This document shows, in pieces, positions 15,656-49,484 of a stretch of DNA of 64,000 nt (the stretch's first letter is position 1; each line of letters starts with the position of its first letter). Where the stretch lies: positions 97 through 64,096 of IMG/VR virus record IMGVR_UViG_2974705165_000001. The stretch is one strand, 5' to 3'. Made by a program: the position numbers and the translations under genes. The notes beneath the pieces were generated by a model. That model was not told the origin of the DNA and did not search any database. It worked only from the letters and a program-made list of their open reading frames with translations. This DNA comes from a virus (lineage: Duplodnaviria; Caudoviricetes).

Positions 15656-15956
15656 CGGCTTGGGTTGCTTGGGTTGCGCTAGTGGCCTTGCTTTTTCTAA
15701 AGTCACCGCAACCCCGCATGCCCACAGGGTCCTAGGCCCCCGACTCTAGTTACTCTACTTTCTTTAGAGAGAAAGAGGAGTAAGAAAATAGCCTTCCCGA
15801 GGCGGCTATCCCCGCCCTGGGCCTCAAAAGCCTAGCGACTTGCAAAGCACCCGAGTAACCCGAGTAACCCGAGCCAGCCCTGTGCTGGCGCGGGTCCTAG
15901 CTGTCTTGGGGTTGCCTCCCAACCCGAGTCGGGCGGAGCAACCCAAGTCGGGTGCA
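15656..15956 (+). repeat. Long non-coding element, copy A (inverted homologue of 49165-49484); candidate replication origin/priming site
   Basis: Exact blocks shared with the reverse complement of copy B: 23 nt (15713-35), 32 nt (15742-73), 16 nt (15790-805), 22 nt (15816-37); tandem 9-mers CCCGAGTAA. Confidence 0.9.
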
Positions 15957-15962
15957 AGGTGA

Positions 15963-16015
15963 TTGCGCCTGGGCGACAGCGCCACAATAATTCGCCTTGG
16001 CCCTTAGAAAAGGAG
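15963..16015 (+). promoter_or_regulatory. Putative promoter and AGAAAAGGAG RBS
   Basis: TTGCGC-N17-AATAAT; RBS at 16006-16015. Confidence 0.55.
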
Positions 16016-16022
16016 GACGAAC

Positions 16023-17597
16023 ATGCGTCCCTATGAACCGAAAACAAAACCCTTCAAGCACCAAGCTGAAGAGTTCGAGCGAAGCAAGGACGCCCCAGCC
16101 CGCGCCATCTTCTGGGAGCAGGGCACCGGCAAGAGCAAGATCACCATCGACACCGCTGGTCACCTCTACGCTTCGGGGCAGATCGACTGCGTCGTCGTGG
16201 TCGCCCCCTCCGGCGTGCACCTGAACTGGGTGACCGACGAAATCCCAACCCACATGCCCGACTGGATTCGAGAGCAGATGTTCGCTCACGTCTACGCTGG
16301 AGACAAGGCCGGTACGAAGTACCACCAAGCCCAGTGTCAGCAGCTGGTCGAGCACAAGGGCTTGGCCTTCCTGGCCATCACGTACGACTCGCTGGTGACC
16401 GAGCGTGCGAAGGAGCTCCTCTGGGCATTGCTCCAGCGGCGCAAGGTGCTCTACGTCGCCGACGAGAGCCAGCGCATCAAGACGCCCAAGGCGACCCGGA
16501 CCAAGGTGGCTGTCGCATCCGCCAAGTTCGCGGCCTTCCGCCGAGTGCTGTCCGGCACCCCGGTGACCCAGGGTCCGTTCGACGTGTACAGTCAAGTGCT
16601 GTTCCTGGACGAAGACTTCTGGAAGCGCGAGGAGATGTCTCCGTTCACCGTCTTCAAGAACCACTTCGGCGTGTGGCGCAAGCAGGCCACCGACACTGGG
16701 CGGAAGTACGATGTCCTTGTCAAATACCGCCGTCTGAACGACCTGAACGCCCTGCTGGAGCAGATCAGCTCCCGCGTGACGAAGGAGGACGTGCTCGACC
16801 TGCCGCCGAAGCTGTACAGCCGCCGCTACTTCACCATGACCGCCGAGCAGCGCCGGATCTACGAGTCCATCAAGGAAGAGTTCATGGCGATCATGCTCTC
16901 CGAAGGAGACTGCCGGAACTGCGGCGGAACTGGGCGCGTCGAGTACGAAGGCTTCGCCGGAGAGTGCCCAACCTGCGAAGGGACCGGCAAGCGCCTGGGC
17001 GGCATGGTAACTGCCCCGCTGGCCATTGTCCGCCTCCTGCGTCTTCAGCAGACTCTGTGCGGCTACGTGCCGGTCGAAACCTTCGAGGAAGGCAAGGAGC
17101 CTGAGCTGACGATGCTGCCCGGTGGGAACCCGCGCCTTGCCCTCCTGGGCGAGATAGTGGAGGATCTTCCCCATCAGTTCATCGTGTTCGCCCGCTTCCG
17201 GAAGGACATCGACCTGATCATGGACCTCATGAAGGAGCTGAAGATCGAGGCTGTGCGCTACGATGGAGCTCTGGACGTTGACGCCCGCGCCGCCTCGAAG
17301 AAGGCGTTCCAGGACGGCAAGGCCCAGGCGTTCGTGGCTAACCCAGCTGTGGCGGCTGAAGGGCTGACGCTCGTCGGGGCGAAGACCGTTGTATACTACA
17401 ACAACAGCTTCAAGCTCGCGGAGCGACTGCAGTCCGAAGACCGGGCTCACCGTATTGGCCAGGATCAGGCTGTGAACTACATCGACCTAGCGTGCCCAGG
17501 GACCGTCGACATGGCGGTCATAGATGCGCTGAAGAATAAGCTTGACATCGCCAGTCAGATTACTGGCGATCGACTGAAGGAGTGGCTCTATGAGTAG
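16023..17597 (+). CDS. SNF2-family (SF2) DNA helicase with inserted CxxCxGxG zinc finger
   Basis: EQGTGKS, DESQ, LSGTP, QSEDRAHRIGQ; insert CRNCGGTG...CPTCEGTG. Confidence 0.92.
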   Translation: MRPYEPKTKPFKHQAEEFERSKDAPARAIFWEQGTGKSKITIDTAGHLYASGQIDCVVVVAPSGVHLNWVTDEIPTHMPDWIREQMFAHVYAGDKAGTKYHQAQCQQLVEHKGLAFLAITYDSLVTERAKELLWALLQRRKVLYVADESQRIKTPKATRTKVAVASAKFAAFRRVLSGTPVTQGPFDVYSQVLFLDEDFWKREEMSPFTVFKNHFGVWRKQATDTGRKYDVLVKYRRLNDLNALLEQISSRVTKEDVLDLPPKLYSRRYFTMTAEQRRIYESIKEEFMAIMLSEGDCRNCGGTGRVEYEGFAGECPTCEGTGKRLGGMVTAPLAIVRLLRLQQTLCGYVPVETFEEGKEPELTMLPGGNPRLALLGEIVEDLPHQFIVFARFRKDIDLIMDLMKELKIEAVRYDGALDVDARAASKKAFQDGKAQAFVANPAVAAEGLTLVGAKTVVYYNNSFKLAERLQSEDRAHRIGQDQAVNYIDLACPGTVDMAVIDALKNKLDIASQITGDRLKEWLYE

Positions 17598-17967
17598 CCA
17601 ACAGAAGAAGGGCCGCGTGTTCGTGGTCCAGAAGACAATGCGATGGGACAGCACCAAGGGTGAACTGGTCCCTAAGTTCGACGTGAGCCCGGCCCAGGAG
17701 TATGGCGAGATCGTCTACCTGCTGAGCCCCACAGCCTCGCCGTTCCGCCCCGACAGCCTCCTGGGCGAACTCCACGAGAAGCTGAAGGACTTCACCCCGG
17801 ACGACTACCTGCTGCTGATCGGCAGCCCGGTCATCATCGGGCTAGCGGTTGCCATCGCTGCCGACTATACCGACGGCGAGGTCAAGGTTCTCCAGTGGAG
17901 CGGCAAGGCGGGCAAGTATCTCCCAATCGAGGTTCGCGGCCTCTTTAATGATTGCGGGCCGGTTTAG
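17590..17967 (+). CDS. Hypothetical protein
   Basis: 125 aa, AAGGAG RBS, phage-like codon usage. Confidence 0.7.
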   Translation: MSSQQKKGRVFVVQKTMRWDSTKGELVPKFDVSPAQEYGEIVYLLSPTASPFRPDSLLGELHEKLKDFTPDDYLLLIGSPVIIGLAVAIAADYTDGEVKVLQWSGKAGKYLPIEVRGLFNDCGPV

Positions 17968-18030
17968 TCTTCAACAGACTTCATCTTGCAATGTAACGGC
18001 GGCGATCCGCCACGAACTGGAAGAGAAAAC

Positions 18031-18585
18031 ATGAGCCAAGACAACGACGCACTGGCATACGCCCAGTACACCGACAGCACCGCTACCTCGGAGAACGCCC
18101 TGGCGGAGCTCTCCCGCCTCGCTGACGAGCAGGCCCAGGCCGCTGCCCAGGTCGCCGACCTGGAAGCCCAGCTGGACAAGGCCCGCGACCGCTTCCGCGA
18201 CATCAGCGAGCGCATCATCCCCGAGAAGATGGACGAGCTCGGCATGGAAGAGTTCAAGACCCGCACCGGCCTGAAGATCAAGATCAAGGAAGCCATCCGC
18301 GCCTCGATCCCGAAGGCCCGGCAGGGCGAAGCCTTCCGCTGGCTCCGTGACAACGGCTATGCTGGCCTGATCAAGCGCAACGTCGCTATCAAGTTCGGCA
18401 AGGGCGAAGACGAGACCGCTGAAGAGCTGGCCAAGCAGCTCAGCGAGAAGTTCGAGGTGGAAGACAACACCTCCGTCCACCCGTCCACCCTGAAGGCGTT
18501 CGTCAACGAGCAGCTCTCCAACGGCGTCGAGATCCCGATGGACCTGTTTGGTGTCCACCGCCAGCGAGTTTCGGTCATCGCCTAA
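18031..18585 (+). CDS. Conserved replication-module protein
   Basis: ATG 18031; IPEKMDELG...AFRWLRDNG...VHPSTLKAFV motif, commonly found next to phage SSB/polymerase genes. Confidence 0.7.
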   Translation: MSQDNDALAYAQYTDSTATSENALAELSRLADEQAQAAAQVADLEAQLDKARDRFRDISERIIPEKMDELGMEEFKTRTGLKIKIKEAIRASIPKARQGEAFRWLRDNGYAGLIKRNVAIKFGKGEDETAEELAKQLSEKFEVEDNTSVHPSTLKAFVNEQLSNGVEIPMDLFGVHRQRVSVIA

Positions 18586-18707
18586 CCTGGGCGACCGACC
18601 ACAGAATCCCGTCACCTGGGCAGTGGTGAGCTTGTCGGCAGACTGACGTCTATCGCACCGGGGGACGCTAAACCGCCTGCTGCTTACTATGTAACAAGGA
18701 GCCAACC

Positions 18708-19547
18708 ATGGCTAACGAAAAAGCTGTCGCAGAAGCCAAGTCCAACCTGCCCGTCGTCCACGACTACGGCGACTATGCCGGTGCCGGCTTCGAGAATCAG
18801 GATCGTTCCGATTACTCGATTCCGTTCCTGGCGGTCCTCCAGGGCCTGAGCCCCGAGCTCGAGACTCTGGAAAGCGCCAAGCCTGGGTTCATCCTGAACA
18901 AGGTCACCCAGGACGTTGTGTCGGGCAAGGACGGCATCGTCTTCGTTCCGTGCTACACCCAGCACGTGTACGTCGAGTGGGTGCCGCGTGACGCTGGTGG
19001 TGGCATCGTCGGTATGCACGAACTCGACTCGGAAGTGGTTGCCCAGGCTCGCGCCGCAGCCCGCACCGGCAAGTTCACCATGCCGAACGGCAACGAGCTG
19101 ATCGAAACCTTCTACGTCTACGGCATCGTGGTCGGCGAAGACGAAACGACCTCTCACGCGGTCATCGCCTTCACCTCGACCAAGATCAAGAAGTACAAGG
19201 CGTGGATGACGAAGGCTCGCACCGTCCAGATGCGCCTGCCCGACGGTCGTAAGATCAACCCGCCGCTGTTCGCCCACCGCTACCGCCTGAAGACGGTAAA
19301 GGAGAAGAACGCCAAGGGTGAGTTCTACAACTGGGACGTCAGCTTCGACGGCGCAACCGCCGAAGCCTGCCGTCTGGCTCCAGCCGACTCCGTGTTCCAG
19401 GAAGCGGCCCAGTGCATGGAACTGGTGAAGTCCGGTCAGGCGAAGGCTGACCTCTCCACCGAAGGCCGTGACCCCGATGAAGCAATGGCAGCCGAGGCGG
19501 AAGCCGAAACTGCTGGCGCTCCGAAGGGCGGCAAGGCCCCGTTCTAA
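18708..19547 (+). CDS. Putative single-stranded DNA-binding protein
   Basis: IPFLAVLQGLSPE N-terminal motif; acidic tail ending in PF; followed by a terminator. Confidence 0.6.
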   Translation: MANEKAVAEAKSNLPVVHDYGDYAGAGFENQDRSDYSIPFLAVLQGLSPELETLESAKPGFILNKVTQDVVSGKDGIVFVPCYTQHVYVEWVPRDAGGGIVGMHELDSEVVAQARAAARTGKFTMPNGNELIETFYVYGIVVGEDETTSHAVIAFTSTKIKKYKAWMTKARTVQMRLPDGRKINPPLFAHRYRLKTVKEKNAKGEFYNWDVSFDGATAEACRLAPADSVFQEAAQCMELVKSGQAKADLSTEGRDPDEAMAAEAEAETAGAPKGGKAPF

Positions 19548-19563
19548 CGAACGGCGGTCTACG

Positions 19564-19590
19564 AAGCGGGAGGGTGACCTCCCGCTTTTC
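19564..19590 (+). terminator. Rho-independent terminator
   Basis: AAGCGGGAGG-GTGA-CCTCCCGCTT then TT. Confidence 0.7.
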
Positions 19591-19610
19591 ACATGAGAAA
19601 AGGAGCCACC

Positions 19611-20807
19611 ATGGACTTCGCGCCACAGCAGGACCAAGCCCTCCGGGCGATCGACTACTGGTTCAAGAACCGCACGAAAGAGCAACCAATCTTCCGCCTG
19701 TTCGGGTTCGCCGGGACGGGCAAAACCACATTGGCGAAACACATAGCCGCCAACATCGACGGTCTGGTCATCTTCGCAGCCTTCACGGGCAAGGCCACCC
19801 ACGTCCTCAAGATGAAGGGCTGTCCGGTCACCTCGACCATCCACCAACTGATCTATGCACCGCGTGAGAAGGGTCAGGCCCGGCTCCGCGACCTCCAGTC
19901 GCAGCTGGTGCGCGAGAAGACGAAGAAGGACGCCAGCCCGAAGCGCGTCAAGGAGCTGGAGGAGTTGATCGCCGCAGAGCAGGCGAACCTCCGCCGCCCC
20001 TCCTGGACCCTGAAGTCCGAGTCCGAGCTGCGCAAGGCGAAACTCCTCATCGTAGACGAAGCGTCCATGGTCGACCAGCCCATGGGAGAAGACCTCCTGT
20101 CGTTCGGTGTGCCGATCCTCGCCCTGGGCGACCCTGGGCAGCTGGCCCCCATCAAGGGCACCGGCTTCTTCACCAACGTGAAGGCCGACTTCCTCCTGAC
20201 CGACATCCACCGCCAAGCCCGCGACAACCCCATCATTGAGATGTCACGTATTGTCCGGGAGGGAGGGTTCCTCCGCCTTGGCCAGTACGGCTCGAGCGAG
20301 GTCGTCGACGGTCGCCAGTTCCAGCGCGACTGGGTGTTCTCCGCTGACCAGATCCTGGTCGGGAAGAACGACACCCGGAAGAGCTACAACGCACGAATCC
20401 GGGAACTGTCCGGAGCGGCTCAGCCGCTACCGTCCCTGGGCGACAAGCTGGTCTGCCTCCGCAACAACCACGACGTAGGGCTGCTCAACGGCTCCCTCTG
20501 GCGCGTGGACGGCCCAGCCCTAGACACCGGGGACGGGCAGGTCTACCTGGAGCTCCTAGGTGAGGAGGGGCAGCGGATCGTGACTTCGGCCCACGCGTGC
20601 TACTTCCACGGCGGAGAGCCGGAATGGTACGAGAAGAAGGAAGCCGACGAATTTGACTATGGATACGCGCTGACGGTTCACAAGTCCCAGGGTTCGCAGT
20701 GGGACAAGGTTCTGGTCATCGACGAATGGAAGCGACAGGACCACAAGCAGTGGCTCTACACGGCAATCACGAGAGCCGCAGAGTCAGTCCGTGTCGTAAA
20801 GATGTAA
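19611..20807 (+). CDS. RecD/Dda-like SF1B DNA helicase
   Basis: GFAGTGKT, VDEASMV, GDPGQLAPI, YALTVHKSQGSQW, LYTAITRA. Confidence 0.93.
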   Translation: MDFAPQQDQALRAIDYWFKNRTKEQPIFRLFGFAGTGKTTLAKHIAANIDGLVIFAAFTGKATHVLKMKGCPVTSTIHQLIYAPREKGQARLRDLQSQLVREKTKKDASPKRVKELEELIAAEQANLRRPSWTLKSESELRKAKLLIVDEASMVDQPMGEDLLSFGVPILALGDPGQLAPIKGTGFFTNVKADFLLTDIHRQARDNPIIEMSRIVREGGFLRLGQYGSSEVVDGRQFQRDWVFSADQILVGKNDTRKSYNARIRELSGAAQPLPSLGDKLVCLRNNHDVGLLNGSLWRVDGPALDTGDGQVYLELLGEEGQRIVTSAHACYFHGGEPEWYEKKEADEFDYGYALTVHKSQGSQWDKVLVIDEWKRQDHKQWLYTAITRAAESVRVVKM

Positions 20808-20868
20808 TGCCGGCAAGCCCTTGCCGGTATAAACTTGACCGCTCCAACCCTGTTTTAGAGGATTCCTC

Positions 20869-21927
20869 ATGAACGAACCAACCGACAAGGAGACTTCGCC
20901 GGAAGGCGAAGGTAGACTATACCTTAGTCAGATCGAAACACCAACTGATTCTTACGTCACCCGCTACCCGAAGGCCGTTGAAATGGCCATCCAGCAGCAG
21001 GACATCTTCTGGCCCGCCGAGGAACTCGGTGTCGAGGAGGATGAAGGCGACTTCCGAACCAAGCTGACCGAGGGCGAGCTGCACGGCATCCTCACCGCCC
21101 AGTCGATCCTCACCCAGTACGAGCTGATGATCGGCGGCGACGAGTTCTGGGGTGGCACCATCTCCCGCATGTTCCCGCGCCCTGAGATTCAGCGCATGTG
21201 CGCCTGCTTCTCGCACGTCGAGCTGGGCAGCCACGCCCCGTTCTACGCCCTGGGCAACGAGGTTCTGGGCAAGGCCACCGACGAGTTCTACACTGAGTGG
21301 AAGCGCGACCCGGTACTGGCTCAGCGAATCAAGTTCATCAGTCAGAAGGCTGCCTCCAAGGACGCCCTGGAAGTCACCGCCGCCCTGGCCTTCTTCGAGG
21401 GTGCTGTGCTGTTCGCGAACTTCGCGTACTTCAAGGCGTTCAACAGCCGGGGCTTCAACATGATCCCCCACTTCGTCGCCGGGATCGACGGCTCCGCGAA
21501 GGACGAGAACTTCCACTCCCTGGCCTCCAGCTGGCTCTTCCGCCAGTGTAAGGCCGAGCGCGTCCAGCTGGGCAACCACTCGGTCGAGCAAGAGCAACGG
21601 CTGGCGGACTACATCCTGCGCATGGCACAGGACGTGTACGAGCACGAGCTGCGCATCGTCGACATGATCTTCGAGAAGGGCGGCATACGCGTCATCACGA
21701 AGGAAGAGCTCATTCAGTTCATCCGCAACCGCGTCGACGTAGTGCTGGCCTACCTGGGCTACCCCGCGCTGTTCGGCGACGAGAAGGGTGTCGTGTCCGG
21801 TTGGTTCTACCAGCAGCTGTCGACCTTCAAGTTCTCCGACTTCTTCGCCGCCACCCAACTCCAGTACACCCGCAACTGGGCCAAGCACAAACTGACCTTC
21901 CGGAAGGAGCTCGCAAATGGCGTTTGA
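20869..21927 (+). CDS. nrdB: Ribonucleotide reductase class I beta subunit
   Basis: Ferritin-like metal ligands (YE, VELGSH..FY, FEG, DENFH); FWPAEE motif; adjacent to nrdA. Confidence 0.9.
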   Translation: MNEPTDKETSPEGEGRLYLSQIETPTDSYVTRYPKAVEMAIQQQDIFWPAEELGVEEDEGDFRTKLTEGELHGILTAQSILTQYELMIGGDEFWGGTISRMFPRPEIQRMCACFSHVELGSHAPFYALGNEVLGKATDEFYTEWKRDPVLAQRIKFISQKAASKDALEVTAALAFFEGAVLFANFAYFKAFNSRGFNMIPHFVAGIDGSAKDENFHSLASSWLFRQCKAERVQLGNHSVEQEQRLADYILRMAQDVYEHELRIVDMIFEKGGIRVITKEELIQFIRNRVDVVLAYLGYPALFGDEKGVVSGWFYQQLSTFKFSDFFAATQLQYTRNWAKHKLTFRKELANGV

Positions 21928-32821: not shown

Positions 32822-33239
32822 ACAGAACATGTGGGGAACGGTCCGCCAGAAGATGGCGGGCCTGGACCCGGTTCGTGTGGAAAACCCGGCGGATCCCGGC
32901 ACCCCTGACGTGAACTACGTAGAGGGCTGGATCGAGCTGAAGCAGGTGGATCAGTGGCCCAAGCGGGCCGCTACTCCCCTGCGCGTACCACACTTCACCG
33001 CTCAACAACGGGTGTGGCTCCGCCGACGTGTCATGTCTGGTGGCCGCGCCTTCGTCCTGATCAAGGTGGCGAGGGACTGGCTCCTCCTGCGAGGGGATGT
33101 CGCCGCCCGTCACTTGGGCAACGTGCCGAAAGAGGAGCTGATTGCTTTTTCGCTTGCTTTCTGGCCTAATTCCCTCCCTGAGGAGGAGTTCCGAACATGG
33201 TTGAAGACCTACAACTTTCAAGGTCCGAGCGACTGCTAA
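32814..33239 (+). CDS. PD-(D/E)xK nuclease / Holliday junction resolvase-like
   Basis: RVEN...GTPDV...WIELK...Q..W. Confidence 0.75.
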   Translation: MSEQNMWGTVRQKMAGLDPVRVENPADPGTPDVNYVEGWIELKQVDQWPKRAATPLRVPHFTAQQRVWLRRRVMSGGRAFVLIKVARDWLLLRGDVAARHLGNVPKEELIAFSLAFWPNSLPEEEFRTWLKTYNFQGPSDC

Positions 33240-33535
33240 TTTGGCGTCGCCGGGCCGGGCTGCGGCAGGAGGAAGCCGCAGCTCAGCACGGTGTTAGTCA
33301 CCGTCGCTATGGCCGCTGGGAGCGGGGCGTTGAGGAGCCGGACACCGACAAGTCGGTCGGTATCCTCGACGTGTACGAAAAGCTGTTCATACTGCGCCGT
33401 CGCGAAGGTGTGTCCCAGCAGGAGATCGCAAACGAACTTGGCTGCACCAGGGCCTGGGTCCAGATGATGGAAACAGGTGAGAGCAGCTCCGAACAACTAC
33501 AGAACTACTGGAAGGGCCGTGCAAATGCAAGCTGA
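33197..33535 (+). CDS. XRE-family protein with two HTH domains
   Basis: RRRAGLRQEEAA...RWERG and RRREGVSQQEIANELG...METG. Confidence 0.8.
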   Translation: MVEDLQLSRSERLLIWRRRAGLRQEEAAAQHGVSHRRYGRWERGVEEPDTDKSVGILDVYEKLFILRRREGVSQQEIANELGCTRAWVQMMETGESSSEQLQNYWKGRANAS

Positions 33536-35897
33536 CATCCAGATGTCCGTCGCCTTCCTCCAGCGGTTCCACCCCAACGGACCCTGGGCGCTAACGGCCA
33601 TCTCACCCGACAAGAAGGCTATCCAGACCCGCTCCTTCCGACCAGGGCAGGAGGATGCGCTGAAGGCGTGGTTGGGCAAGAACGTCGGCGAGATGAACGT
33701 GTACTTCCACGTCAACTTGCCCATGGGCGACATCAGCAAGAAGGCCGAAAAGACCGACATCGAAGCCATGTGCTGGCTCCACATCGACATCGACCCTCGG
33801 GCCGGTGAGGACATCGAAGAGGAGCGGGCTCGGGCCTTCCGCATGCTGGACCAGCACAAGCCCCGCCCCACGGTCATCATCGACTCCGGCGGTGGCTACC
33901 AGGGCTTCTGGAAGCTCGACGAGTGCATCCCGGTCAACGGCGACCTCATGGCCGCTGAAGACGCCGAACGCTACAACATCCACCTGGAGCGCATCTTCGG
34001 GGCAGACAACTGCCATAACGTCGACCGCATCATGCGCCTGCCGGGCACCATCAACCTGCCCGACGCCAAGAAGCGGAAGAAGGGTCGCGTCAAGGCCCTG
34101 GCCACCCTGGTCGAGTTCAACGACCTGTCCTACCCACTCCGGGAGTTCACGCCTGCGCCCAAGGTGCAGACCGCGGACGAGACTGGCTTTGCCTCGGGCA
34201 AGACGGTGCGTGTCAGCGGAAACGTCGAGCGCCTCGACTCTGTCGACGACCTCGACAAGTGGGAAGTGCCGGACTGGCTGAAGGTGCTCATCGTCCAGGG
34301 CAAGGATCCAGACGAGCCCCACAAGTACGCCAGCCGTTCCGAGGCGCTGTTCGCCTGCTCCTGCGAGCTGGTGCGCCGGGGCGTGCCGGACGACGTCATC
34401 TTCTCGGTCCTGACCGACGAGTCCTTCGGCATTGCCGAGTCGGTGGTGGAGCACAAGCGTCCTGAGAAGTACGCCATGCGCCAGATCGAGCGGGCTCACG
34501 AAGACGCTATCGACCCGATGCTCCGCCAGCTGAACGAGAAGCACGCGGTCATCGGCGACATGGGCGGCAAGTGCCGCATCATCAGCGAGGTCTTCGACCC
34601 GGCCATGAAGCGCCACAAGATCAGCCGCCAGTCCTTCGAGGACTTCAAGAACCGCTACCGTCACATCAAGGTCCAGGTTGGCGACGACGGCAAGGGGAAC
34701 CCGATCCTCAAGGCTGCAGGCTCCTGGTGGGTCGACCACCCGAACCGCCGACAGTACGAGACCATCGTGTTCGCCCCTGGGCACGAGCTGCCGGACGCCT
34801 ATAACCTGTGGAAGGGCTTCGCGGTGGACGCCATCCCCGGCGACAAGCACCTGAACTTCCTGGAGCACATCCGGAAGAACATCTGCTCCGGCGACGAAGA
34901 CCTCTACAAGTACATGATCGGCTGGTTCGCTCGAGCCGTCCAGGAGCCGGACAGCCCAGGCGAGGTCGCTGTGGTCCTCCGAGGCAAGATGGGTACTGGT
35001 AAGTCATTCGTGGTCAAGGTGTTCGGGAACCTGTTTGGGCGTCACTTCATGCAGGTCTCGGATCCGAAGCACCTCGTGGGCTCGTTCAACGCCCACCTCC
35101 GCGACTGCGTGGTCCTGTTCGGCGACGAGGCGTTCTACGCCGGAGACAAGAAGCACGAGTCGATCCTCAAGACCCTGATCACCGAAGAAGTCATCGTGGT
35201 GGAAGGCAAGGGCGTAGACGCGGAAGCGGCCCCAAACTACGTCCACCTGCTCATGGCCTCCAACAGCGACTGGGTGGTCCCTGCCGGCCCGGAGGAGCGC
35301 CGCTACCTCGTCATCGACGTTAGCGCCGACCGGATGCAGGACCGCGAATACTTCAAGGCCCTGCGGAAGGAAATGGACGAAGGCGGCTCGGAGAACCTGC
35401 TGCACTTCCTCATGACCTACGACCTGTCCGAGTACGAGGTCCGGGCGGTGCCCAAGACCCAGGCGCTTCAAGACCAGAAGATGATGTCGCTCTCCCCGGA
35501 GCAGCAGTGGTGGTATGAGAAGCTCCACTACGGCAGGCTCATGGGCGAGCACACCAAGTGGGAGCCGGAGGTTCAGCAGAAGGAGCTCCAGGAGGACTAC
35601 CTCGCGTTCATGCAGAAGCTGGGCGTGTATCGCAAGATGTCCAACGTCGCCCTGGGCAAGTTCCTCCAGAAGGTCTGCCCTCCAGGCTACCCGAAGTCCT
35701 ACCAGAAGCGGGCTGAGATGGTGGAGTACACGCCGGACGGCTTCGCGATCAAGAAGATGGGACGCCCGTACTTCTACGAGCTGCCGGGGCTCGACATCCT
35801 GCGCAAGACGTGGGACGAGAACTTCGGCGGGCCTTACCCGTGGGAGCCAATCAACGAGGGCAAGGAAGACGCCCAGGAAGACAAGAACCCGTTCTGA
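33525..35897 (+). CDS. Primase-helicase: RepB-like primase N-terminus plus SF3-like helicase
   Basis: LHIDID...IIDSGGGYQGFW...RIMRLPGT; Walker A GKMGTGKS; FGDE; MASN; ERRY. Confidence 0.88.
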   Translation: MQADIQMSVAFLQRFHPNGPWALTAISPDKKAIQTRSFRPGQEDALKAWLGKNVGEMNVYFHVNLPMGDISKKAEKTDIEAMCWLHIDIDPRAGEDIEEERARAFRMLDQHKPRPTVIIDSGGGYQGFWKLDECIPVNGDLMAAEDAERYNIHLERIFGADNCHNVDRIMRLPGTINLPDAKKRKKGRVKALATLVEFNDLSYPLREFTPAPKVQTADETGFASGKTVRVSGNVERLDSVDDLDKWEVPDWLKVLIVQGKDPDEPHKYASRSEALFACSCELVRRGVPDDVIFSVLTDESFGIAESVVEHKRPEKYAMRQIERAHEDAIDPMLRQLNEKHAVIGDMGGKCRIISEVFDPAMKRHKISRQSFEDFKNRYRHIKVQVGDDGKGNPILKAAGSWWVDHPNRRQYETIVFAPGHELPDAYNLWKGFAVDAIPGDKHLNFLEHIRKNICSGDEDLYKYMIGWFARAVQEPDSPGEVAVVLRGKMGTGKSFVVKVFGNLFGRHFMQVSDPKHLVGSFNAHLRDCVVLFGDEAFYAGDKKHESILKTLITEEVIVVEGKGVDAEAAPNYVHLLMASNSDWVVPAGPEERRYLVIDVSADRMQDREYFKALRKEMDEGGSENLLHFLMTYDLSEYEVRAVPKTQALQDQKMMSLSPEQQWWYEKLHYGRLMGEHTKWEPEVQQKELQEDYLAFMQKLGVYRKMSNVALGKFLQKVCPPGYPKSYQKRAEMVEYTPDGFAIKKMGRPYFYELPGLDILRKTWDENFGGPYPWEPINEGKEDAQEDKNPF

Positions 35898-36175
35898 TGA
35901 TGACGTCTATCAACAACGAGCAACGGAGAGACGTGCTGGTGCGGCTGGGGTGGAACCCAGTCGCTGTGCGCCGACTCGGACCCGAGGAGCTTGCCCAGGC
36001 CCTGAACCGCGCCTGGGCGGAGCGCCCTCTCCGGGTTGAGTTCGAAGCATTACGTCAACTTGGTCATGCTTTTGAACAATCCGAAATATCTGACTTGCCA
36101 AGACACCGAACTTTCGACCAGAATGGCGGTCGTTCCCACGAAGGAACTTCTGCCAAGAACTTAGAAACGGAGTAA
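35897..36175 (+). CDS. Hypothetical protein
   Basis: ATG overlaps the primase stop; 3' part overlaps a promoter-like site. Confidence 0.45.
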   Translation: MMTSINNEQRRDVLVRLGWNPVAVRRLGPEELAQALNRAWAERPLRVEFEALRQLGHAFEQSEISDLPRHRTFDQNGGRSHEGTSAKNLETE

Positions 36176-36181
36176 AGAAGA

Positions 36182-41510: not shown

Positions 41511-41525
41511 GATCGGCCTGATAGA

Positions 41526-41550
41526 AAAGCCCTCTCCGGAGGGCTTTCTT
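41526..41550 (+). terminator. Terminator (possibly bidirectional)
   Basis: AAAGCCCTC-TCCG-GAGGGCTTT-CTT. Confidence 0.7.
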
Positions 41551-41573
41551 CCAATAGAAAAGGAGCAACACCC

Positions 41574-42458: not shown

Positions 42459-42533
42459 TGAATTTGGCGAAGGGCGCTTGCCTTATGCTCGCTCTTCGCC
42501 AACAATTCGCTCATCACGAATTAGGAGCTCGCC

Positions 42534-42734: not shown

Positions 42735-42767
42735 GCCCGCCAACACAGCAGAAACGGAGTAACAGAA

Positions 42768-43835: not shown

Positions 43836-44041
43836 CTCAGCTGATACCGAAGGACAAAGAACCCGCCACCGTCCGCGTGGGCGGCACTGCCCCGGCGGAG
43901 CGCATCCCGACCGCGATGGAGCTGGCGCTCCAGAAGGCCAAGCAGAAGAAAGACGGCCTCAAGGCCGCTGGCTACGCCGAAGCCTACGGCGCTAGCAAGA
44001 AGCGCGTGAAGGAAATGAAGAAGGAGGCCCGTCGTGGCTAA
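43832..44041 (+). CDS. Hypothetical basic protein
   Basis: Start overlaps upstream stop; Lys-rich. Confidence 0.55.
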   Translation: MTQLIPKDKEPATVRVGGTAPAERIPTAMELALQKAKQKKDGLKAAGYAEAYGASKKRVKEMKKEARRG

Positions 44042-44243
44042 GTGCCAGGGCTGGACCAAGCCCAACGGTGGAGCCCGCAAGTTCCACTACTTCATGGAGG
44101 GCGACCCCCGGTCGCTCTGCCAGAAGTTGATGATCCTGCGGCCCGACCCTGAAGCGTTCGAGGACGCTCACCACGACCACAAAGAGAACTGCGCGGCCTG
44201 CCGCAAAGAGCTCTATCGTCGACTGGAGAAGGAAGATGATTGA
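44034..44243 (+). CDS. Hypothetical small Cys/His protein
   Basis: GGAGG RBS; KFHYF...SLC...CAAC. Confidence 0.6.
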   Translation: MAKCQGWTKPNGGARKFHYFMEGDPRSLCQKLMILRPDPEAFEDAHHDHKENCAACRKELYRRLEKEDD

Positions 44244-44766
44244 CTTCATGATCATTGGCCTGCCCCGCTCCGGCACCACCTGGGCGTCGAACTGGCTGAC
44301 AACGGACGCGATCCACTGCGTTCACGACCCGTTGTACACCGAGCACTACTCGGACTGGGACGAGCGCCTGCCCGCCCTGGCCCCTGCTGGTGCCGTGGTC
44401 GGCGTCTCCTGCACCGGCATCTGGCGCTGGGCTGACTGGGTCAACGCTCACCCGGCGCGGAAGGTCATCCTCCACCGTGACCCGGACGAGATCCGCAAGT
44501 CGATGGCTGAGATCGGCATGCCTGGACACATCGGCGACGCCGAGCTGGAAGCCCTTGACAGCGTCATCGGCCTGCACGTTCCCCACTCCGACCTGTTCGA
44601 CACCGAGCACGCGGAGGAGATCTGGAAGCACCTCGTCCCTGGGCAGCCGTTCAACGCCCATCGGCACCGGGCGCTGGTGCAGGTCGAAATGCAACCCCAA
44701 TTCTCTGGTCTGTCAGTCGGCCCAGAGGTAATGCGAAGGCTGCTCAACGAACTTGAGCGAATCTAA
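44236..44766 (+). CDS. Sulfotransferase-like P-loop-fold protein
   Basis: FMIIGLPRSGTTW (PAPS-binding-loop-like), HDP, VILHRDP...S. Confidence 0.65.
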   Translation: MIDFMIIGLPRSGTTWASNWLTTDAIHCVHDPLYTEHYSDWDERLPALAPAGAVVGVSCTGIWRWADWVNAHPARKVILHRDPDEIRKSMAEIGMPGHIGDAELEALDSVIGLHVPHSDLFDTEHAEEIWKHLVPGQPFNAHRHRALVQVEMQPQFSGLSVGPEVMRRLLNELERI

Positions 44767-44777
44767 GGAGTGACACC

Positions 44778-45014
44778 ATGAAACGAACCGCCTCGATGCG
44801 TGCCCTGGCCATCGCTGCAATGATGGGCCTCGGCTCCGTCCTGCCCTTCGGGCAGACCTCCCTCTCCGAGCGCCGTGGGCCGGGCTACGAGCGCCTAGTG
44901 CGCAGCCGCCCTGAGCGTTCCCCGGAAGAGTCCCAGGCACGCCTCTCTGCCGCCGAGGCGAAGCGCGAGCGCCGTCGCCAGCGCAACCTCCGCCTGGAGG
45001 CCCGCCAGCCATGA
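44778..45014 (+). CDS. Hypothetical protein
   Basis: TAAGGAG RBS; AAEAKRERRRQRNL tail. Confidence 0.6.
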   Translation: MKRTASMRALAIAAMMGLGSVLPFGQTSLSERRGPGYERLVRSRPERSPEESQARLSAAEAKRERRRQRNLRLEARQP

Positions 45015-45265
45015 TGAACGCCTACGCCATCATGTACTGGACCGGCGTCTTCACCTACGTGGTCAGTGTCCTCCCGACCCTCGCGCTGGTGCTGTGGTTC
45101 GGGATCAAGGTCGTCGACCTCATGGGCAACCGGCTGTGGAAGAAGCTGCGTGCGTACCACGACCTGAAGGTTCTCCAAGAGGAGCTTCGTCGGCTCGAGT
45201 ATCAAGGCAAGCTCTGGAAGAAGCCCGAGCCGCCGAAGTTTGATATCGAGGATGAGGACGACTAG
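45011..45265 (+). CDS. Hypothetical membrane protein
   Basis: N-terminal TM helix. Confidence 0.6.
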   Translation: MMNAYAIMYWTGVFTYVVSVLPTLALVLWFGIKVVDLMGNRLWKKLRAYHDLKVLQEELRRLEYQGKLWKKPEPPKFDIEDEDD

Positions 45266-45338
45266 CCGTCCAGCGGCACGTGCCGTGGGCTGCCGCTCCG
45301 CTGGATAATACCCTCCTTGACAACCGGGGAGGGTGCAT

Positions 45339-45567
45339 CATGAAACCGAGTTACTGTGAAATGCAGAAGAAGTTGATCGACCTCCTGGAGAGCCTCCCTT
45401 GTGGCGGAACCCTGGAGGAACTGGTGAACGGTCTGAACTCCAACGCGAGCGAGCTGCGCCGGTTGATCCTGCCTCTCTGTTACGCTGGGCGAATCTCCGT
45501 CACCCCCTACCGCCACCCGTCCAACGGGAGAGCGACCTACCTGTTCAAACTTAGGAAGCGAGAATGA
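45339..45567 (+). CDS. Small HTH-like hypothetical protein (start approximate)
   Basis: GGAGG RBS; TLEELVNGLNSNASELRRLI. Confidence 0.45.
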
Positions 45568-46241
45568 AACGACCGAACGCATACGTCTTTGACACCGAAA
45601 CGACCGGCATGAAGGAGCCGGTCGTTGTTGAATCCGGCCTCCTGGCCGTCGCCTTCAACGAGCACGGGGCGCTCCGCCCCTTGTGGACCGACCCCCAGGT
45701 CGAACGCTTCAACCCCGGCAAGCCCATCGAGTGCGGTGCCTGGGCGACACACTTCATCTCCAACGCGGACGTGGAGAACGCCCAGCCCGCTTCCGAGTTC
45801 GCCCTGCCCGAAGGCACCGAATACATCATCGGCCACAACGTCGACTACGACTGGGAAGTCATCGGCAAGCCCGACGTCAAGCGCATCTGCACCCTCGCCC
45901 TGGCTCGCCAGCTCTGGCCCGACGCCGACTCCCACAAGCAGCTCGCCCTCGTCTACATGCTGTCGCCCAGTCGGGCTGCTGGCTGGGCTAAGGGTGCCCA
46001 CAGCGCCGGTGCCGACGTTCAGATGTGCGGCTTCATCCTCTGGGCAGTCTGCCACGAGCTGGGCATCAAGTCGATGGAGGAGCTCTGGGAAGCCTCCGAA
46101 CGGGCTCGCATCCCAACGCACATGCCCTTCGGCAAGCACAAGGGTATGCTGATTGCCGAACTTCCTTCGGACTATGTAAAGTGGCTTCGTCGGCAAACAG
46201 ACGTCGACCCCTATCTCATGATCGCCCTTGGAGGCAAGTGA
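45564..46241 (+). CDS. DEDDh 3'-5' exonuclease (ExoX-like)
   Basis: FDTETTG, GHNVDYD, HSAGADV; C-terminal PFGKHKG...YVKWL module. Confidence 0.9.
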   Translation: MKRPNAYVFDTETTGMKEPVVVESGLLAVAFNEHGALRPLWTDPQVERFNPGKPIECGAWATHFISNADVENAQPASEFALPEGTEYIIGHNVDYDWEVIGKPDVKRICTLALARQLWPDADSHKQLALVYMLSPSRAAGWAKGAHSAGADVQMCGFILWAVCHELGIKSMEELWEASERARIPTHMPFGKHKGMLIAELPSDYVKWLRRQTDVDPYLMIALGGK

Positions 46242-46999
46242 TGGACAACATAGAAAAGGAGCCAGCCCCGGCGCAGGATGAGCGGGAGGCGGTGGAGCGG
46301 TTCAGCCCGACGACCAGCGTGCCGCATTGCGGGCGCGCCTCTGAGGTTGAGGCGTACATGACCGATGATGACGACGGGGAGTATATGGCCGTCGCCCAGC
46401 ACGAACGCATCGTCGCAGCACTCACCCGCCCCGCGCAGACCGAGCAGCAGCCCATCCGGCTGCCTGAACGTAAGCGCACCGATCACCTGCCGAAAGAATA
46501 CAAGACCATGTCCGTGGTTCGGGCTGGCCTTGAGGCGTATAACCGCGCACTCGACGACGTGGCCGCATTGAACGCCGCCCCCATCGCGCAGACCGATCCC
46601 TGGGCACCCTCGGGTGGGGACTACGATCGCTCCATCCACGCGAACCCGGACGCCAAGGCGTGGGCCGATTTCTTCGTGAAGACGTTCCCTGGACAGGCTG
46701 ACGAGCACGACCTCTTGCTGGGCTGGTTCGCCAACGCAATGATGGCGATGCACGACCGCCTGCGCCAGGGCACCACGGTCCACCGCCTCGAGAACGACGA
46801 GCGCGTCGTGACCTTCCGGGTGAACGCTGAGACGAAGGACGCCGTGTTCGATCGCGTCATGAAGTTCTTCGAGGAGCAGGACCAGTTCTCCGGCGAAGGC
46901 ATCCACCAGAGCGACAACTGCCTGATCGAGGCCCCGAGCGTCCTGTCGGACATCGCCGACAAGATCCTGAAGTTCAACGTCAACCACAAGGAGGAGTGA
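46238..46999 (+). CDS. Mosaic hypothetical protein
   Basis: GGAGG RBS; segmented by TRPAQTEQQP and AAPIAQT linkers. Confidence 0.6.
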   Translation: MMDNIEKEPAPAQDEREAVERFSPTTSVPHCGRASEVEAYMTDDDDGEYMAVAQHERIVAALTRPAQTEQQPIRLPERKRTDHLPKEYKTMSVVRAGLEAYNRALDDVAALNAAPIAQTDPWAPSGGDYDRSIHANPDAKAWADFFVKTFPGQADEHDLLLGWFANAMMAMHDRLRQGTTVHRLENDERVVTFRVNAETKDAVFDRVMKFFEEQDQFSGEGIHQSDNCLIEAPSVLSDIADKILKFNVNHKEE

Positions 47000-47288
47000 C
47001 ATGACGAGCAAGACCTTTGTTCCTGACATGCCGCTGCGCTACCGCCGCCTTGGGCTGTCCTGCCCAAGGACTTGCGATGTGTGCGGCCTGCCTCGGGGCT
47101 CCAGGAAGGTGAACCACAGCAAGTGCTCCAAGATTCGCCAGCAGAGGCCGAACTGATGCCCTGCCCGAACTGCGGAGAGGACATGGAAGGCGACGGCTTC
47201 AAGGTCGTTCGCCACTGCCCCAACTACGAAGACCACTGGGACAAGGAGCCGGACGCTGGGCCGTTCCACTGTTCCGAGGAGAAGCAAG

Positions 47289-47624
47289 ATGAAGAAGACC
47301 CTTCGCGGCCTGAAGCGTAAGGTCGCCCCGGACGGACGCTACGTCCTCCTGCACAAGTGGAAGACCGAGCACGGCCACCGGCTGGTGCGCATCTGGTCCG
47401 GCGAGTGGGACTGCTACTGGAGACCCAGCCGAGCAGGCTACACCACCGATGTCGCCCAGGCGGGCATCTACCGTCTCGACGACGCCATCGACGCCTCTGG
47501 ACATTGCGGCCCGGAGAAGAAGATCGTCTACGAGTTCCTGCCCAAGAACACCAAGCAGATCCCGACTCAGGAGAGCGCGGGCGACCCACAGCTGATGCTG
47601 AAGTGCCTGGGCGAACCGCGATGA
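47289..47624 (+). CDS. Hypothetical protein
   Basis: IWSGEWDCYWRPSRAGYT...AGIY. Confidence 0.6.
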   Translation: MKKTLRGLKRKVAPDGRYVLLHKWKTEHGHRLVRIWSGEWDCYWRPSRAGYTTDVAQAGIYRLDDAIDASGHCGPEKKIVYEFLPKNTKQIPTQESAGDPQLMLKCLGEPR

Positions 47625-47968
47625 CCCGCCCAGAGGAAGTGCTTAGCCGCGAGGCCGAGGGTAATGTGACCCGATTCGATGCTGCACCGCGCCTCTACAA
47701 CGCTCGGAAGGTCGGGACGATGGTCCAGGGGCCTGTCTACATTGGCCGACCGTCGGAGTGGGGCAATCCCTTCGAGGTGGGCCGCGACGGCACGCGAGAG
47801 GAGGTCATCCAGAAGCACCGCGAGTGGTTCCTGGGCCAGCCTGAGCTCGTTGAGCGAGCAAGGCGAGAGCTCCGTGGGCGAGACCTCTTGTGCTGGTGCG
47901 CACCGCGCAAGTGCCATGGCGAAGTGCTGCTGGAGGTGGCGAATGAAGCTGCTACTGCTGAAGGCTAA
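47621..47968 (+). CDS. DUF4326-like protein
   Basis: ATG 47621; VYIGRPSEWGNPF...LRGRDLLCWCAPRKCHGEVL. Confidence 0.85.
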   Translation: MTRPEEVLSREAEGNVTRFDAAPRLYNARKVGTMVQGPVYIGRPSEWGNPFEVGRDGTREEVIQKHREWFLGQPELVERARRELRGRDLLCWCAPRKCHGEVLLEVANEAATAEG

Positions 47969-48019
47969 CCTCCTGCTGGCGTTCTCCGCCCTCGGCTGGG
48001 CTTTCTGGGAGATAGCGCG

Positions 48020-48244
48020 ATGGGCGATGTGGTAACGTGTCCGAAGTGTGGACAAACGTCCGGGAACTCCTGGTCGCAGTGCGAAGGACGCTGTCCCATG
48101 AGCGTGTCGCCGTGGTTCGATCCGACGCTTGACTATGGACCTTCGACGTTGGACAGAGGACAACGGACGGTGGACCTGGGAGCTGCACACAACACACGAG
48201 TTGGAGAAACTGAGACGCCATCGCGAGAGGTTCGCCAACCTTGA
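48020..48244 (+). CDS. Small Cys-rich hypothetical protein
   Basis: CPKCGQTSGNSWSQCEGRCPM. Confidence 0.5.
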   Translation: MGDVVTCPKCGQTSGNSWSQCEGRCPMSVSPWFDPTLDYGPSTLDRGQRTVDLGAAHNTRVGETETPSREVRQP

Positions 48245-48453
48245 CACATCGGCCTTGCCTCTTCGTTCGCCTCCAGCGACCATGAGCGCCTAACGAACCA
48301 CGAGGGCCGAATCATGACTTGCCAGAAATGCGGAGCCATCAACGATCGCAAGACCAGCAAACACACATCCTTCATCGTCCAGGGTCGCCGCTGCTGCGGA
48401 CACTGTGGGTCGGTGATGGGCCGTTCCACCAAAACTAGCTGACAGAGGTATCT

Positions 48454-48678
48454 ATGACAACGCTGAACGACGCATCCGCCAACGACATCGTCGACGCCAT
48501 TGGGCCGCGCTCCAAGGCTCGCTACTGGGTCCGCGACAAGGACCGCCGCTGCTCCATCACCCTGGGCAAAGAACCCGCCGAGGAGAACCTCCAGGAGGGC
48601 TTCCGCGAGGTTACTGCCGAGGAGCAGGACGCCTTCCGGGCCGAAACACGTGCCCACTTCGCTCACCTACTGAAGTGA
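48454..48678 (+). CDS. Hypothetical protein
   Basis: GAGGT RBS. Confidence 0.6.
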   Translation: MTTLNDASANDIVDAIGPRSKARYWVRDKDRRCSITLGKEPAEENLQEGFREVTAEEQDAFRAETRAHFAHLLK

Positions 48679-48685
48679 GGTCGAC

Positions 48686-49162
48686 ATGAGTGACATTCTT
48701 CTCGGCAATCGAGCGGTGCTGGTCGCCGCCAGCCACGCCATCCAGGCCGCAGAGCGGGTCGAGGAGCTCCGTCGGGAGCTGGCCCAGGCAGAGTCCTTCC
48801 TGGTTGCTCGACGCTGTGAGGTGGTCGACGAGCTGGACGCTCTGAGGGCTTGCGATCCGGACGCGTGGCCTGCCCCTGGGCTAACGTCCCTGCAGATGGG
48901 CGAGTGGCGCGTGGACATCCAGCCCCGGTACTACGACTGCACCCAGAAGTTCGGCGGGGTGGAGGTCTCGAAGATCGTCCCCGAGCAGCTGACCAACATC
49001 GGAGAGGCGATCGCCCAGATCGACCGGCAGGTGGGTGCGGTCGTGCGGGAGAACCGGGCGAGCGAGGGGTGTCGCTGCAACCCCAAGCAGAAGGAAGCGT
49101 GTGCCCGTGCGAGGCACGCTCGACCGAACGACCCAGTCGTTGACGGCTGCCGCAACGCCTAG
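48686..49162 (+). CDS. Hypothetical protein
   Basis: GAGGT RBS; last gene before the terminator. Confidence 0.6.
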   Translation: MSDILLGNRAVLVAASHAIQAAERVEELRRELAQAESFLVARRCEVVDELDALRACDPDAWPAPGLTSLQMGEWRVDIQPRYYDCTQKFGGVEVSKIVPEQLTNIGEAIAQIDRQVGAVVRENRASEGCRCNPKQKEACARARHARPNDPVVDGCRNA

Positions 49163-49164
49163 GT

Positions 49165-49484
49165 TCGCCCGACTTAGGTTGCCCGAGCCCGACTCTAGTT
49201 GGTTTGACGAACTAGAGTCGGGTTTTTGCGTTAAAAGCCTGTAAAAACAACAGGTTGCAGCGCCCGACTCTAGATACTTGAGTTACTCAGCCCTTTTTAA
49301 AACGCTAGGCTTTTGAGGCCCAGGCGCGGGATCACCGCCTCGGGAAGGCTCTTTTTATACTCTCTCTTCTCTCTAAAGAAAGTAGAGTAACTAGAGTCTC
49401 CCCTCTAGGACCCTGTGGGCATGCGGGTCACAGCTGTCTTTAGATAAAGCAAGGTCATGTGAGCAACTAGAGTAACCCGAGTCC
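49165..49484 (-). repeat. Long non-coding element, copy B (inverted homologue of 15656-15956)
   Basis: Exact blocks 49405-27, 49367-98, 49335-50 and 49303-24 are reverse complements of the copy A blocks. Confidence 0.9.
49188..49227 (+). terminator. Rho-independent terminator ending the non-structural region
   Basis: CCCGACTCTAGTT-9 nt-AACTAGAGTCGGG-TTTTT. Confidence 0.8.

Follow-up and report, generated by a model that had tools for sequence, protein, structure and literature searches.

Background

Phage SPP1 carries two replication origins of like organization, oriL and oriR, in each of which repeats are combined with an AT-rich unwinding element and to both of which one initiator binds, according to the portion of the SPP1 literature drawn upon here (PMC6316719). 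Here we analyze a comparable pair of non-coding elements, designated A (positions 15656-15955, plus strand) and B (49163-49484, minus strand), in a 64,000-nt stretch of DNA from a tailed Pseudomonas phage (IMG/VR record IMGVR_UViG_2974705165_000001, positions 97 to 64,096; hereafter, the window). The two systems are alike in comprising two sites made of repeats plus an AT-rich element, with one site in the replication region of a pac-type siphovirus with co-directional genes and its partner in the late region. They differ in that the SPP1 sites lie ~13 kb apart, oriL is inside the initiator gene and a DnaB-type helicase works with a separate loader, whereas the elements described here sit at module boundaries ~30 kb apart, accompany an SF3 primase-helicase as candidate initiator and recur in several genera with lineage-specific iterons. 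The comparative analysis presented below leads us to read A and B as ancient paralogous cis-acting hubs, located at the starts of the replication/early and packaging/late modules in a large group of tailed phages.

A second point of reference is phage YuA, whose GenBank record (NC_010116) lists promoter-trap sigma-70 promoters of medium activity in the regions upstream of the helicase gene gp02 and of terS gp50 (489-568 and 33014-33160), each with the -35 box TTAGGT. These are the same two positions as those of A and B, and the YuA and window regions, which have in common an iteron type (AACCYAAG...), a 9-bp AAGTAA array and an ACTTTCT block, are evidently homologous, to judge from these shared parts. 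The YuA copies, however, are direct and possess recognizable -35 and -10 boxes, whereas those of the window are inverted, match at 79% over 189 nt and have no consensus -10.

Several other systems offer partial parallels. Satellite phage P4 requires two sites in cis, ori and crr, and its SF3-type alpha protein binds the iterons of both through a C-terminal domain; the P4 sites, on the other hand, are only a few kb apart and not at module boundaries, and the likeness of the C-terminal domain encoded in the window is an Atlas lead only. In RSF1010, the oriV signals ssiA and ssiB, read by RepB', are inverted, ~40-nt sequences on opposite strands inside one compact origin. Inverted signals are found here as well, alongside a primase with some distant likeness to RepB, but sister lineages carry both copies on the same strand and the Pfam match of the primase is below its cut-off. 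The origins of T7 and oriF and oriG of T4 use a promoter that fires toward an AT-rich unwinding element, coupling the start of replication to early or middle transcription; a candidate promoter likewise faces the AT-rich core in the twin elements, but the T4 and T7 origins lack the flanking iteron arrays. Lastly, lambda OL and OR are two related, mutually inverted regulatory regions that flank a block of genes and share their binding proteins, ~2.4 kb apart and with divergent transcription, whereas here the genes all run one way and the sites are ~30 kb apart. The arrangement had been thought undescribed for this phage group, and the literature searched (which excludes the 2008 YuA paper and the supplementary transcription start site tables of PMC10914365) contains no description of the pair, of an origin or of the iterons for this family. 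What appears to be new is the proposed twin initiator-site architecture with its clade-specific inversion; the twin-origin kind is already known from SPP1.

An inverted pair on a circular genome

A first-pass annotation of the window had pointed to two diverged, inverted intergenic copies, and a repeat search bears this out. The outstanding inverted repeat of the window pairs 15659-15847 with 49293-49481 (189 nt, 79% complementary), and the runners-up among the 208 inverted pairs detected extend over 40-41 nt at 71-73%. All four exact blocks that had been noted are present, each once per strand (15713-35/49405-27, 15742-73/49367-98, 15790-805/49335-50 and 15816-37/49303-24), and the longest of them, at 32 nt, compares with 16 nt for the longest exact inverted repeat outside the elements. 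A 21-mer from the core has two matches in the window at three mismatches or fewer, against none expected from 100 shuffles. The window ends are identical over 31 nt, in agreement with the circle of 63,969 bp proposed earlier and with the direct terminal repeats listed for this complete IMG/VR record, and the arc from A to B measures ~33.6 kb. In their central third, A and B are 85% identical to each other and only 52-70% identical to the copies of relatives; because the two centres are closer to each other than to those of relatives, this pattern indicates that partial gene conversion has taken place between A and B in the lineage of the window.

Element A occupies the intergenic gap (15656-16022) between the last open reading frame (ORF) of the lysis cassette, which ends at 15655, and a SNF2-family helicase gene (16023-17597, plus strand), the first gene 3' of the element. 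Element B, its reverse-complemented twin, lies in the gap (49163-49606) that follows an orphan plus-strand ORF, the end of which is at 49162, and precedes terS (49607-50131, plus strand; phrog_4044, E 9e-48). Nearly all strong ORFs of the window are on the plus strand, and B points away from the terS gene that follows it. In Logan assemblies, compared over 14000-18000, the unitigs of the probable source run stop exactly at the 32-nt repeat (15742-15773 / 49367-49398), whose length suffices to interrupt assemblies of such phages at k=31; one contig of 30,372 nt covers the B-to-A arc, and the unitig breaks give no information on isomers.

Conservation in the Abidjanvirus clade

Searches with A and with B retrieved the same 14 GenBank/RefSeq records, corresponding to 10 phages, all of them Pseudomonas Abidjanvirus or unclassified look-alikes. 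Two places per record were matched in 14 of 14 cases with one element and in 13 of 14 with the other. The five records searched in their entirety all have a plus-strand copy that separates the lysis genes from the helicase gene, as well as a minus-strand copy upstream of terS, and match strands in the remaining records fit the same inverted layout; within this clade, the relatives thus keep two inverted copies at the same boundaries.

The 12 aligned copies show a mean column identity of 72% and share three invariant blocks, GC.TT.TCTAAAG, TAGTTACTC..CTTTCT.TAGA.AGA.AGAG and AAAAGCCTAGCG. Identity among relatives amounts to 76-96% between A copies and 74-97% between B copies, and falls to 67-78% between A and B, be it within or between genomes. 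Since A-A and B-B identities exceed A-B identity, the duplication must be older than the clade, with selection acting on both copies, in line with the initial view that this was not a recent duplication. Few further members of the clade surfaced in scans with the core pattern: PaMx11 alone was returned from IMG/VR, and of five metagenome loci two (L036 and L037) resemble the copies of Ab18, one of them being B-type and the other A-type. The other three (L034, L035, L038) were set aside as chance matches in AT-rich DNA.

Direct copies at the same two sites in wider lineages

Beyond the Abidjanvirus clade, the same two positions are occupied by copies in direct orientation. In YuA, a 30-nt exact block and CTTAGGTTACTT recur in direct orientation in the regions ahead of gp02 and of gp50, together with inverted CCCAAGCGCAC iterons; the exact blocks of these regions reach only 30 and 12 nt. 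Bordetella phage MW2 has a direct second copy upstream of terS (137 nt at 82%), and cyanophage Pam3, in which lysis genes, gap and helicase gene follow one another in the same order, has one between its last early gene and terS (224 nt at 92%). An IMG/VR scan with a helicase alignment yielded 42 loci, 17 of them on contigs of at least 50 kb, and a second copy was sought in four of these 17 (G001-G004). Three, G001, G002 and G004, carry a second copy immediately ahead of terS, in direct orientation and 75-86% identical over 100-282 nt. In G003, the fourth, GTGTACA iterons abound in the region ahead of the helicase gene, and this genome may be a one-site member of the group. A parallel IMG/VR scan for terS gave 13 loci, three of them on contigs shared with the helicase set, and was not used for pairing A with B. 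Phages AAT-1 and Xoo-sp2, in which the helicase gene follows the polymerase gene, and EKU1, whose helicase gene is annotated in pieces, were left out of the comparison.

Each of the three contigs with two copies uses an iteron of its own in both of them: GGACCTGA in G002 (9 + 8 occurrences), GCACAACC in G001 (5 + 6) and TCTTAACTT in G004 (7 + 6), clustered in all three genomes within roughly 250-580 nt. The presence of a genome's own iteron in both copies is the co-evolution to be expected of sites that are read by one lineage-specific protein. By inspection, in eight of 12 regions upstream of the helicase gene iterons lie on either side of a 9-bp array of the AAGTTAAG type and of a simple repeat rich in AT, for example (TAA)n or (TATC)n. 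With direct copies in six sister lineages (YuA, MW2, Pam3, G001, G002 and G004), the inverted geometry is, on this comparison, specific to the Abidjanvirus clade, and the two-site system is ancient. The inverted bracketing emphasized by the first-pass annotation is consequently real in that clade, but it is not the defining property of the system.

Iterons, duplex stability and dyad symmetry

Three degenerate iteron patterns are concentrated in the two elements. RAGTCGGGY places six of its nine window matches inside them (3.9 expected by chance in the whole window), CTAGAGTC all five (1.6 expected) and YYMRAGTAAC all three (0.6 expected). A measure of local 8-mer repetition ranks the segment of B first in the window (26) and that of A joint second (24, tied with the segment at 11951), over a mean of 6.3 and a standard deviation of 4.1. 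In the 10 copies of relatives, the 9-mer iteron CYNRAGTCG recurs at fixed positions and strands (~15+, 37+, 69-, 101+, 146-, 285+, 294+ and 360+).

The AT-rich cores of B and A are also the two least stable 50-bp duplexes of the window, at -57.6 and -58.8 kcal/mol against a mean of -77.5 +/- 3.9 kcal/mol. They lie ~5 standard deviations from that mean and contain the two lowest-GC 40-mers of the genome. In A, the core is a pyrimidine-then-purine tract (15741-15790) and a candidate DNA unwinding element; in B, it spans 49349-49398 and includes the exact block 49367-49398. Another of the lowest-GC parts of the genome, directly after the primase gene (35898-36181), was considered as a competing origin and rejected, given that it has almost no internal repeats and contains an apparent small ORF.

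The consensus of the aligned copies folds well beyond column shuffles, with -39.9 kcal/mol for the top strand (shuffles -9.1 +/- 2.8) and -43.3 kcal/mol for the bottom strand (overall, shuffles range from -9 to -10 +/- 3). A 13-bp long-range helix shows a few compensatory changes, and the core can form a CTTTCT/AGAAAG hairpin on either strand. Because both strands fold equally well, we read this signal as dyad symmetry in DNA, that is, as probable inverted binding sites, and not as evidence for RNA. An excess of G-U pairs on the top strand was discarded as evidence for RNA, the argument being circular when the fold has been predicted on that strand; the both-strand test is free of this bias. 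Searches of the whole window produced no Rfam 15 match at the gathering score and no tRNA or tmRNA.

Anatomy of the elements

Read from its left end, A opens with two tandem 9-mers, GCTTGGGTT, identified by repeat analysis as an iteron variant, AACCCAAGC, on the minus strand (15658-15675); they constitute the left arm of the long-range dyad, the partner arm of which is at 15937-15950. A candidate promoter, P1 (TTGCGC-N18-TAAAGT, 15674-15703, plus strand), would be aimed at the AT-rich core. It agrees with the consensus at 7 of 12 positions and fails a stricter consensus scan, but its CTAAAG is invariant in all 12 aligned copies. Next comes M1, a pseudo-palindrome of ~19 bp, ACCCCGCATGCCCACAGGG (15711-15729, plus strand), lying inside the exact block 15713-15735, and then the 32-nt exact core (15742-15773, plus strand), which is composed of an inverted iteron, GACTCTAG (the reverse complement of the pattern CTAGAGTC above), and TTACTCTACTTTCTTTAGAGAGAA. 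The fourth exact block (15816-15837, plus strand) ends in the 12 nt AAAAGCCTAGCG that are invariant throughout the alignment. It is followed by an array of 9-bp period, CCCGAGTAA twice and then CCCGAG (15850-15873, plus strand), whose counterparts are the AAGTAAGTT arrays of YuA and MW2. The right part of A comprises M2, a second copy of the pseudo-palindrome recognized by alignment and inverted with respect to M1 (15877-15893, minus strand), and two iterons, CAACCCGAGTCGGG and CAACCCAAGTCGGG, 19 bp apart (15920-15952, plus strand).

In B, a cluster of RAGTCGGGY iterons falls within 49167-49273 (49167, 49187 and 49262 on the minus strand, 49215 on the plus strand) and encloses a near-perfect palindrome with 16-bp arms (49188-49203 with 49207-49222). 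Beyond the AT-rich core lie the exact block that holds the M1 of this copy (49405-49427, minus strand) and CTTGCTTTATCTAAAG (49438-49453, minus strand), the counterpart of 15687-15702. Each element carries two copies of the pseudo-palindrome, of 19-20 bp, the second of which is direct in the A copies of relatives, and inverted in their B copies and in A of the window.

Promoters and transcription

For YuA, ONT-cappable-seq agrees with the promoter-trap assay on one sigma-70-like promoter, P014, and nine promoters have a common phage-specific motif, in the part of that study relied upon here (PMC10914365). By manual alignment, the 32-nt core of the window is alike at 18 of 24 positions to the block containing the trapped YuA promoter, and has no consensus -10 at the place of that promoter. 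A sigma-70 consensus scan found no site in either element of the window, the best relaxed match being the 7/12 of P1, and a by-eye comparison with sigma-54 -24/-12 promoters revealed no correctly spaced GG/GC in either. A scan for terminators gave one weak terminator-like site (15671-15688), not kept as a hairpin in relatives.

The A copies of YuA and Pam3 share CACTTTCTCCAG exactly. In Pam3 (L039:1474-1797 versus L047:1578-2045), YuA and MW2, the A and B copies are up to 92% identical except for ~20 nt around the presumed -10, which read CACTTTCTCCAG..TTGAAAT or TTCAAT in the A type and GGTTCTTAGGTGG or GGGTTTCTTACCTG in the B type. This difference hints that A and B may be regulated differently.

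The helicase gene and terS each have a proximal promoter-like site of their own outside the shared element. That of the helicase gene is specific to A (TTGCGC-N17-AATAAT, with an overlapping CACAAT; 15963-15991, plus strand), and relatives have TTGCCC/TTGCCT-N17-CACAAT at the same place. Promoter-like sequence of this type (TTGACA/TTGTCG...CTCTTCG...CACAAT) is also held by an 88-nt direct repeat at 56003-56090 and 56675-56762 (93% identity), and is likewise that of YuA repeat regions whose annotation is of sigma-70 promoters dependent on a phage cofactor. On the terS-side flank of B, a 15-nt sequence, CCTGCCCAGGGAGGC (49490-49504), is matched exactly in YuA (L022, ~567-581; E 1.5e-4), where it sits in the leader downstream of the A-region promoter; MW2 has CGCCCAGGGAGGCG at the corresponding place.

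Candidate binding proteins and recombinases

The window encodes a primase-helicase (33477-35897, plus strand) with a DUF5906 (D5-like SF3 helicase) domain, a weak RepB_primase N-terminus and a C-terminus of ~170 aa outside any assigned domain. Its N-terminal match to RepB_primase (PF16793) scores 23.1 bits, below the curated cut-off of 24.3 (E 7e-5), while an SF3 primase-helicase homologue is present in all five other lineages tested. We infer that this protein is a candidate iteron-binding initiator, acting through its C-terminal domain. An alternative candidate binder is a 112-aa protein with two Xre-like helix-turn-helix motifs, encoded next to the primase gene (33197-33535, plus strand). 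Neither Phage_integrase (PF00589) nor Resolvase (PF00239) has a match in the whole 64,096-bp record, in a search where control genomes scored as expected.

Sequences flanking element B

The plus-strand ORF that abuts B in the window has GC values of 0.72, 0.47 and 0.82 at its three codon positions, and codon-position GC favours plus-strand genes throughout 48454-49162. The seven ORFs beside B on both strands were matched to no family in a PHROG search, and tblastn of four window ORFs near B against the B loci of relatives gave no match. The relatives Ab18 (L016), PAKlein3 (L018), Lucjan (L019) and AIIMS (L014) exhibit a different flank: directly after the last early gene and before B, they have a conserved hairpin of terminator-like look (GAAGGGC-GCTG-GCCCTTC, then TTCGTTT), followed by ~400 nt of G-rich, repetitive non-coding DNA in which no conserved ORF was seen. 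This stretch is missing from the window, where the orphan ORF abuts B instead. Further upstream, at 47550-48250, codon-position GC is ambiguous or reversed (GC2 exceeds GC1 in the best plus-strand frame) and no PHROG match was obtained on either strand. The plus-strand ORF located there (47679-48035) has an Arg/Ser-rich junk translation, and one or more true genes may instead use the minus strand or a different frame.

Discussion

The reading that we favour, and in which we place about half of our confidence, is that A and B are twin replication origins made of iterons plus an unwinding element, or else initiator-docking hubs, in the manner of SPP1 oriL/oriR. Each hub brings together lineage-specific iteron clusters in both orientations (CYNRAGTCG / RAGTCGGGY in the window), the most easily melted DNA of the genome and a promoter-like block with a trapped-promoter counterpart in YuA. 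Copy B is flipped in the Abidjanvirus clade, so its function cannot depend on reading into terS, and the retention of the element despite its changed orientation with respect to neighbouring genes is as expected of a self-contained DNA site. Together, iterons, meltable DNA, a promoter and tolerance to inversion compose the textbook anatomy of an initiator-dependent origin. Most likely, the elements would operate as a pair of iteron-dependent, probably transcription-assisted origins, or as an origin and a second initiator-bound site. One phage DNA-binding protein, presumably the SF3 primase-helicase through its C-terminal domain, would coat the iterons of both sites; the AT-rich core would then open and the helicase be loaded. 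The sequence comparisons show the anatomy, the conservation, the two-site layout and the sharing of iterons within each genome, and the YuA record shows promoter activity, whereas binding by a protein, melting and the start of replication belong to the proposed mechanism. The earlier proposal of a two-site cis-acting system is supported and extends family-wide, with an origin-type function in the lead, but the three specific options put forward for it are disfavoured.

Several observations weigh against this interpretation. No second copy is detectable in G003 (the 76,449-bp contig of L079), and four of the 12 regions inspected upstream of the helicase gene (L071, L072, L075 and L088) lack an obvious iteron/AT-rich architecture. 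With regard to the binding protein, the elements are 13-18 kb from the primase gene instead of adjoining it, the DNA-binding role of the C-terminus is a weak Atlas lead (Pox_D5 in 12% of one cluster), and the helix-turn-helix candidate has a homologue in only two of five other lineages. In local 8-mer repetition, the segments at 11951 and 38051 nearly equal the elements. Computed over four-fold degenerate sites, neither GC nor AT skew switches at A or B, a result that is uninformative rather than contrary. The literature searched reports no mapped origin in any relative. Lastly, the promoter activity of the YuA regions could by itself explain conservation at the starts of modules.

This last point is the basis of the main rival, less likely than the favoured reading but well worth attention, namely, that A and B are transcription-only hubs in which an early host sigma-70 promoter is combined with operator or iteron sites for a phage regulator that switches early and late modules, with no role in replication. 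The trapped sigma-70 promoters of both YuA regions, the location of both elements at module starts in every lineage examined, the operator-like dimensions of M1 and M2 (pseudo-palindromes of 19-20 bp), the double helix-turn-helix, Xre-like gene adjoining the primase gene and the -10 regions of A and B, which differ in the same way each time in direct lineages and so suggest differential regulation, all speak for it. In the elements of the window, however, there is no consensus sigma-70 site, and six to nine iterons flanking an AT-rich simple repeat would be unusual for an operator. Furthermore, promoter-like sites proximal to the helicase gene and to terS lie outside the elements, and B is inverted and yet 74-97% conserved among B copies, so that it is not kept to drive terS. 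Copy B would here have to yield an antisense or non-coding leftward transcript, or serve only as a regulator sink or roadblock. Relatives could accommodate such an RNA in the ~400 nt of non-coding sequence that they have left of B, but in the window B abuts a plus-strand ORF and leaves no room for a leftward gene. Origin and promoter/operator functions may, in any case, coexist.

The remaining alternatives appear considerably weaker. That the elements are two copies of a self-contained small-RNA gene, encoding a regulatory RNA or a replication primer, would account for the tolerance to either orientation, for the promoter homologue and for a fold that far exceeds shuffles, with a few compensatory changes in its 13-bp helix. 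We deem it quite unlikely, as the bottom strand folds as well as the top one, Rfam gives no match, scans of the elements disclose no convincing terminator and the left arm of the long-range helix, being upstream of or overlapping the candidate -35, would not be transcribed; paired structured RNAs, one of the options of the first-pass annotation, fall on the same lack of an Rfam match and equal folding. A second option, one ssi signal per strand for a RepB'-like primase as in RSF1010 oriV, can draw on the weak RepB_primase match, on the hairpin that either strand can form and on the opposite strands of the copies in this clade. Nevertheless, that match is below the Pfam cut-off, the copies share a strand in six related lineages and ssiA and ssiB lie within one compact oriV, not 30 kb apart, which makes the idea highly improbable. 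It is common for a terminase small subunit to bind repeat arrays close to the gene that encodes it, and B is directly upstream of terS in every lineage examined, as pac-like packaging sites bound by the terS product would be. Copy A, on the other hand, is ~30 kb from terS and beside replication genes, nothing in the present data links terS to the iterons, and we give this view equally little credence. A published report (PMC11946847) also describes the family as circularly permuted and as lacking a fixed start of the genome, which again counts against packaging sites. Least probable of all, to the point of being nearly negligible, is the option of recombination sites that flip half of the genome between copies. 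Inverted copies with exact blocks of up to 32 nt, and centres whose 85% identity implies past sequence exchange, are compatible with it. Yet the record encodes no tyrosine or serine recombinase of the Phage_integrase or Resolvase families, the 14 records of relatives have the same arrangement and none has the half-genome on the other strand, and the direct copies of six lineages would lead to deletion, not inversion.

Building on the favoured reading of A and B as twin origins or initiator hubs, it is conceivable, if rather improbable, that the elements form one coupled system. A single initiator would pair both sites by handcuffing or looping, split the circle into early and late domains and time the switch from origin-dependent to concatemer replication, as proposed for fork stalling at SPP1 oriR. 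The flip of B would then create a facing pair out of two unidirectional origins that run in the same direction and jointly copy the whole circle. Such a pair would first over-replicate, or would insulate, the non-structural half, and the Abidjanvirus clade would amount to a natural experiment in origin geometry.

If A and B are origins or initiator hubs, they would mark the replication starts of the Mesyanzhinovviridae, a large group of Pseudomonas phages in therapeutic use, and of their relatives and, as iterons differ by lineage, supply a ready set of orthogonal iteron/initiator pairs. The rule of architecture that emerges, which places a hub ahead of the helicase gene and another ahead of terS, can aid the annotation of new genomes, and offers a guide for phage engineering, in that deleting or separating the hubs may be lethal. 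More generally, the clade-specific inversion of one hub provides a natural test of orientation dependence.

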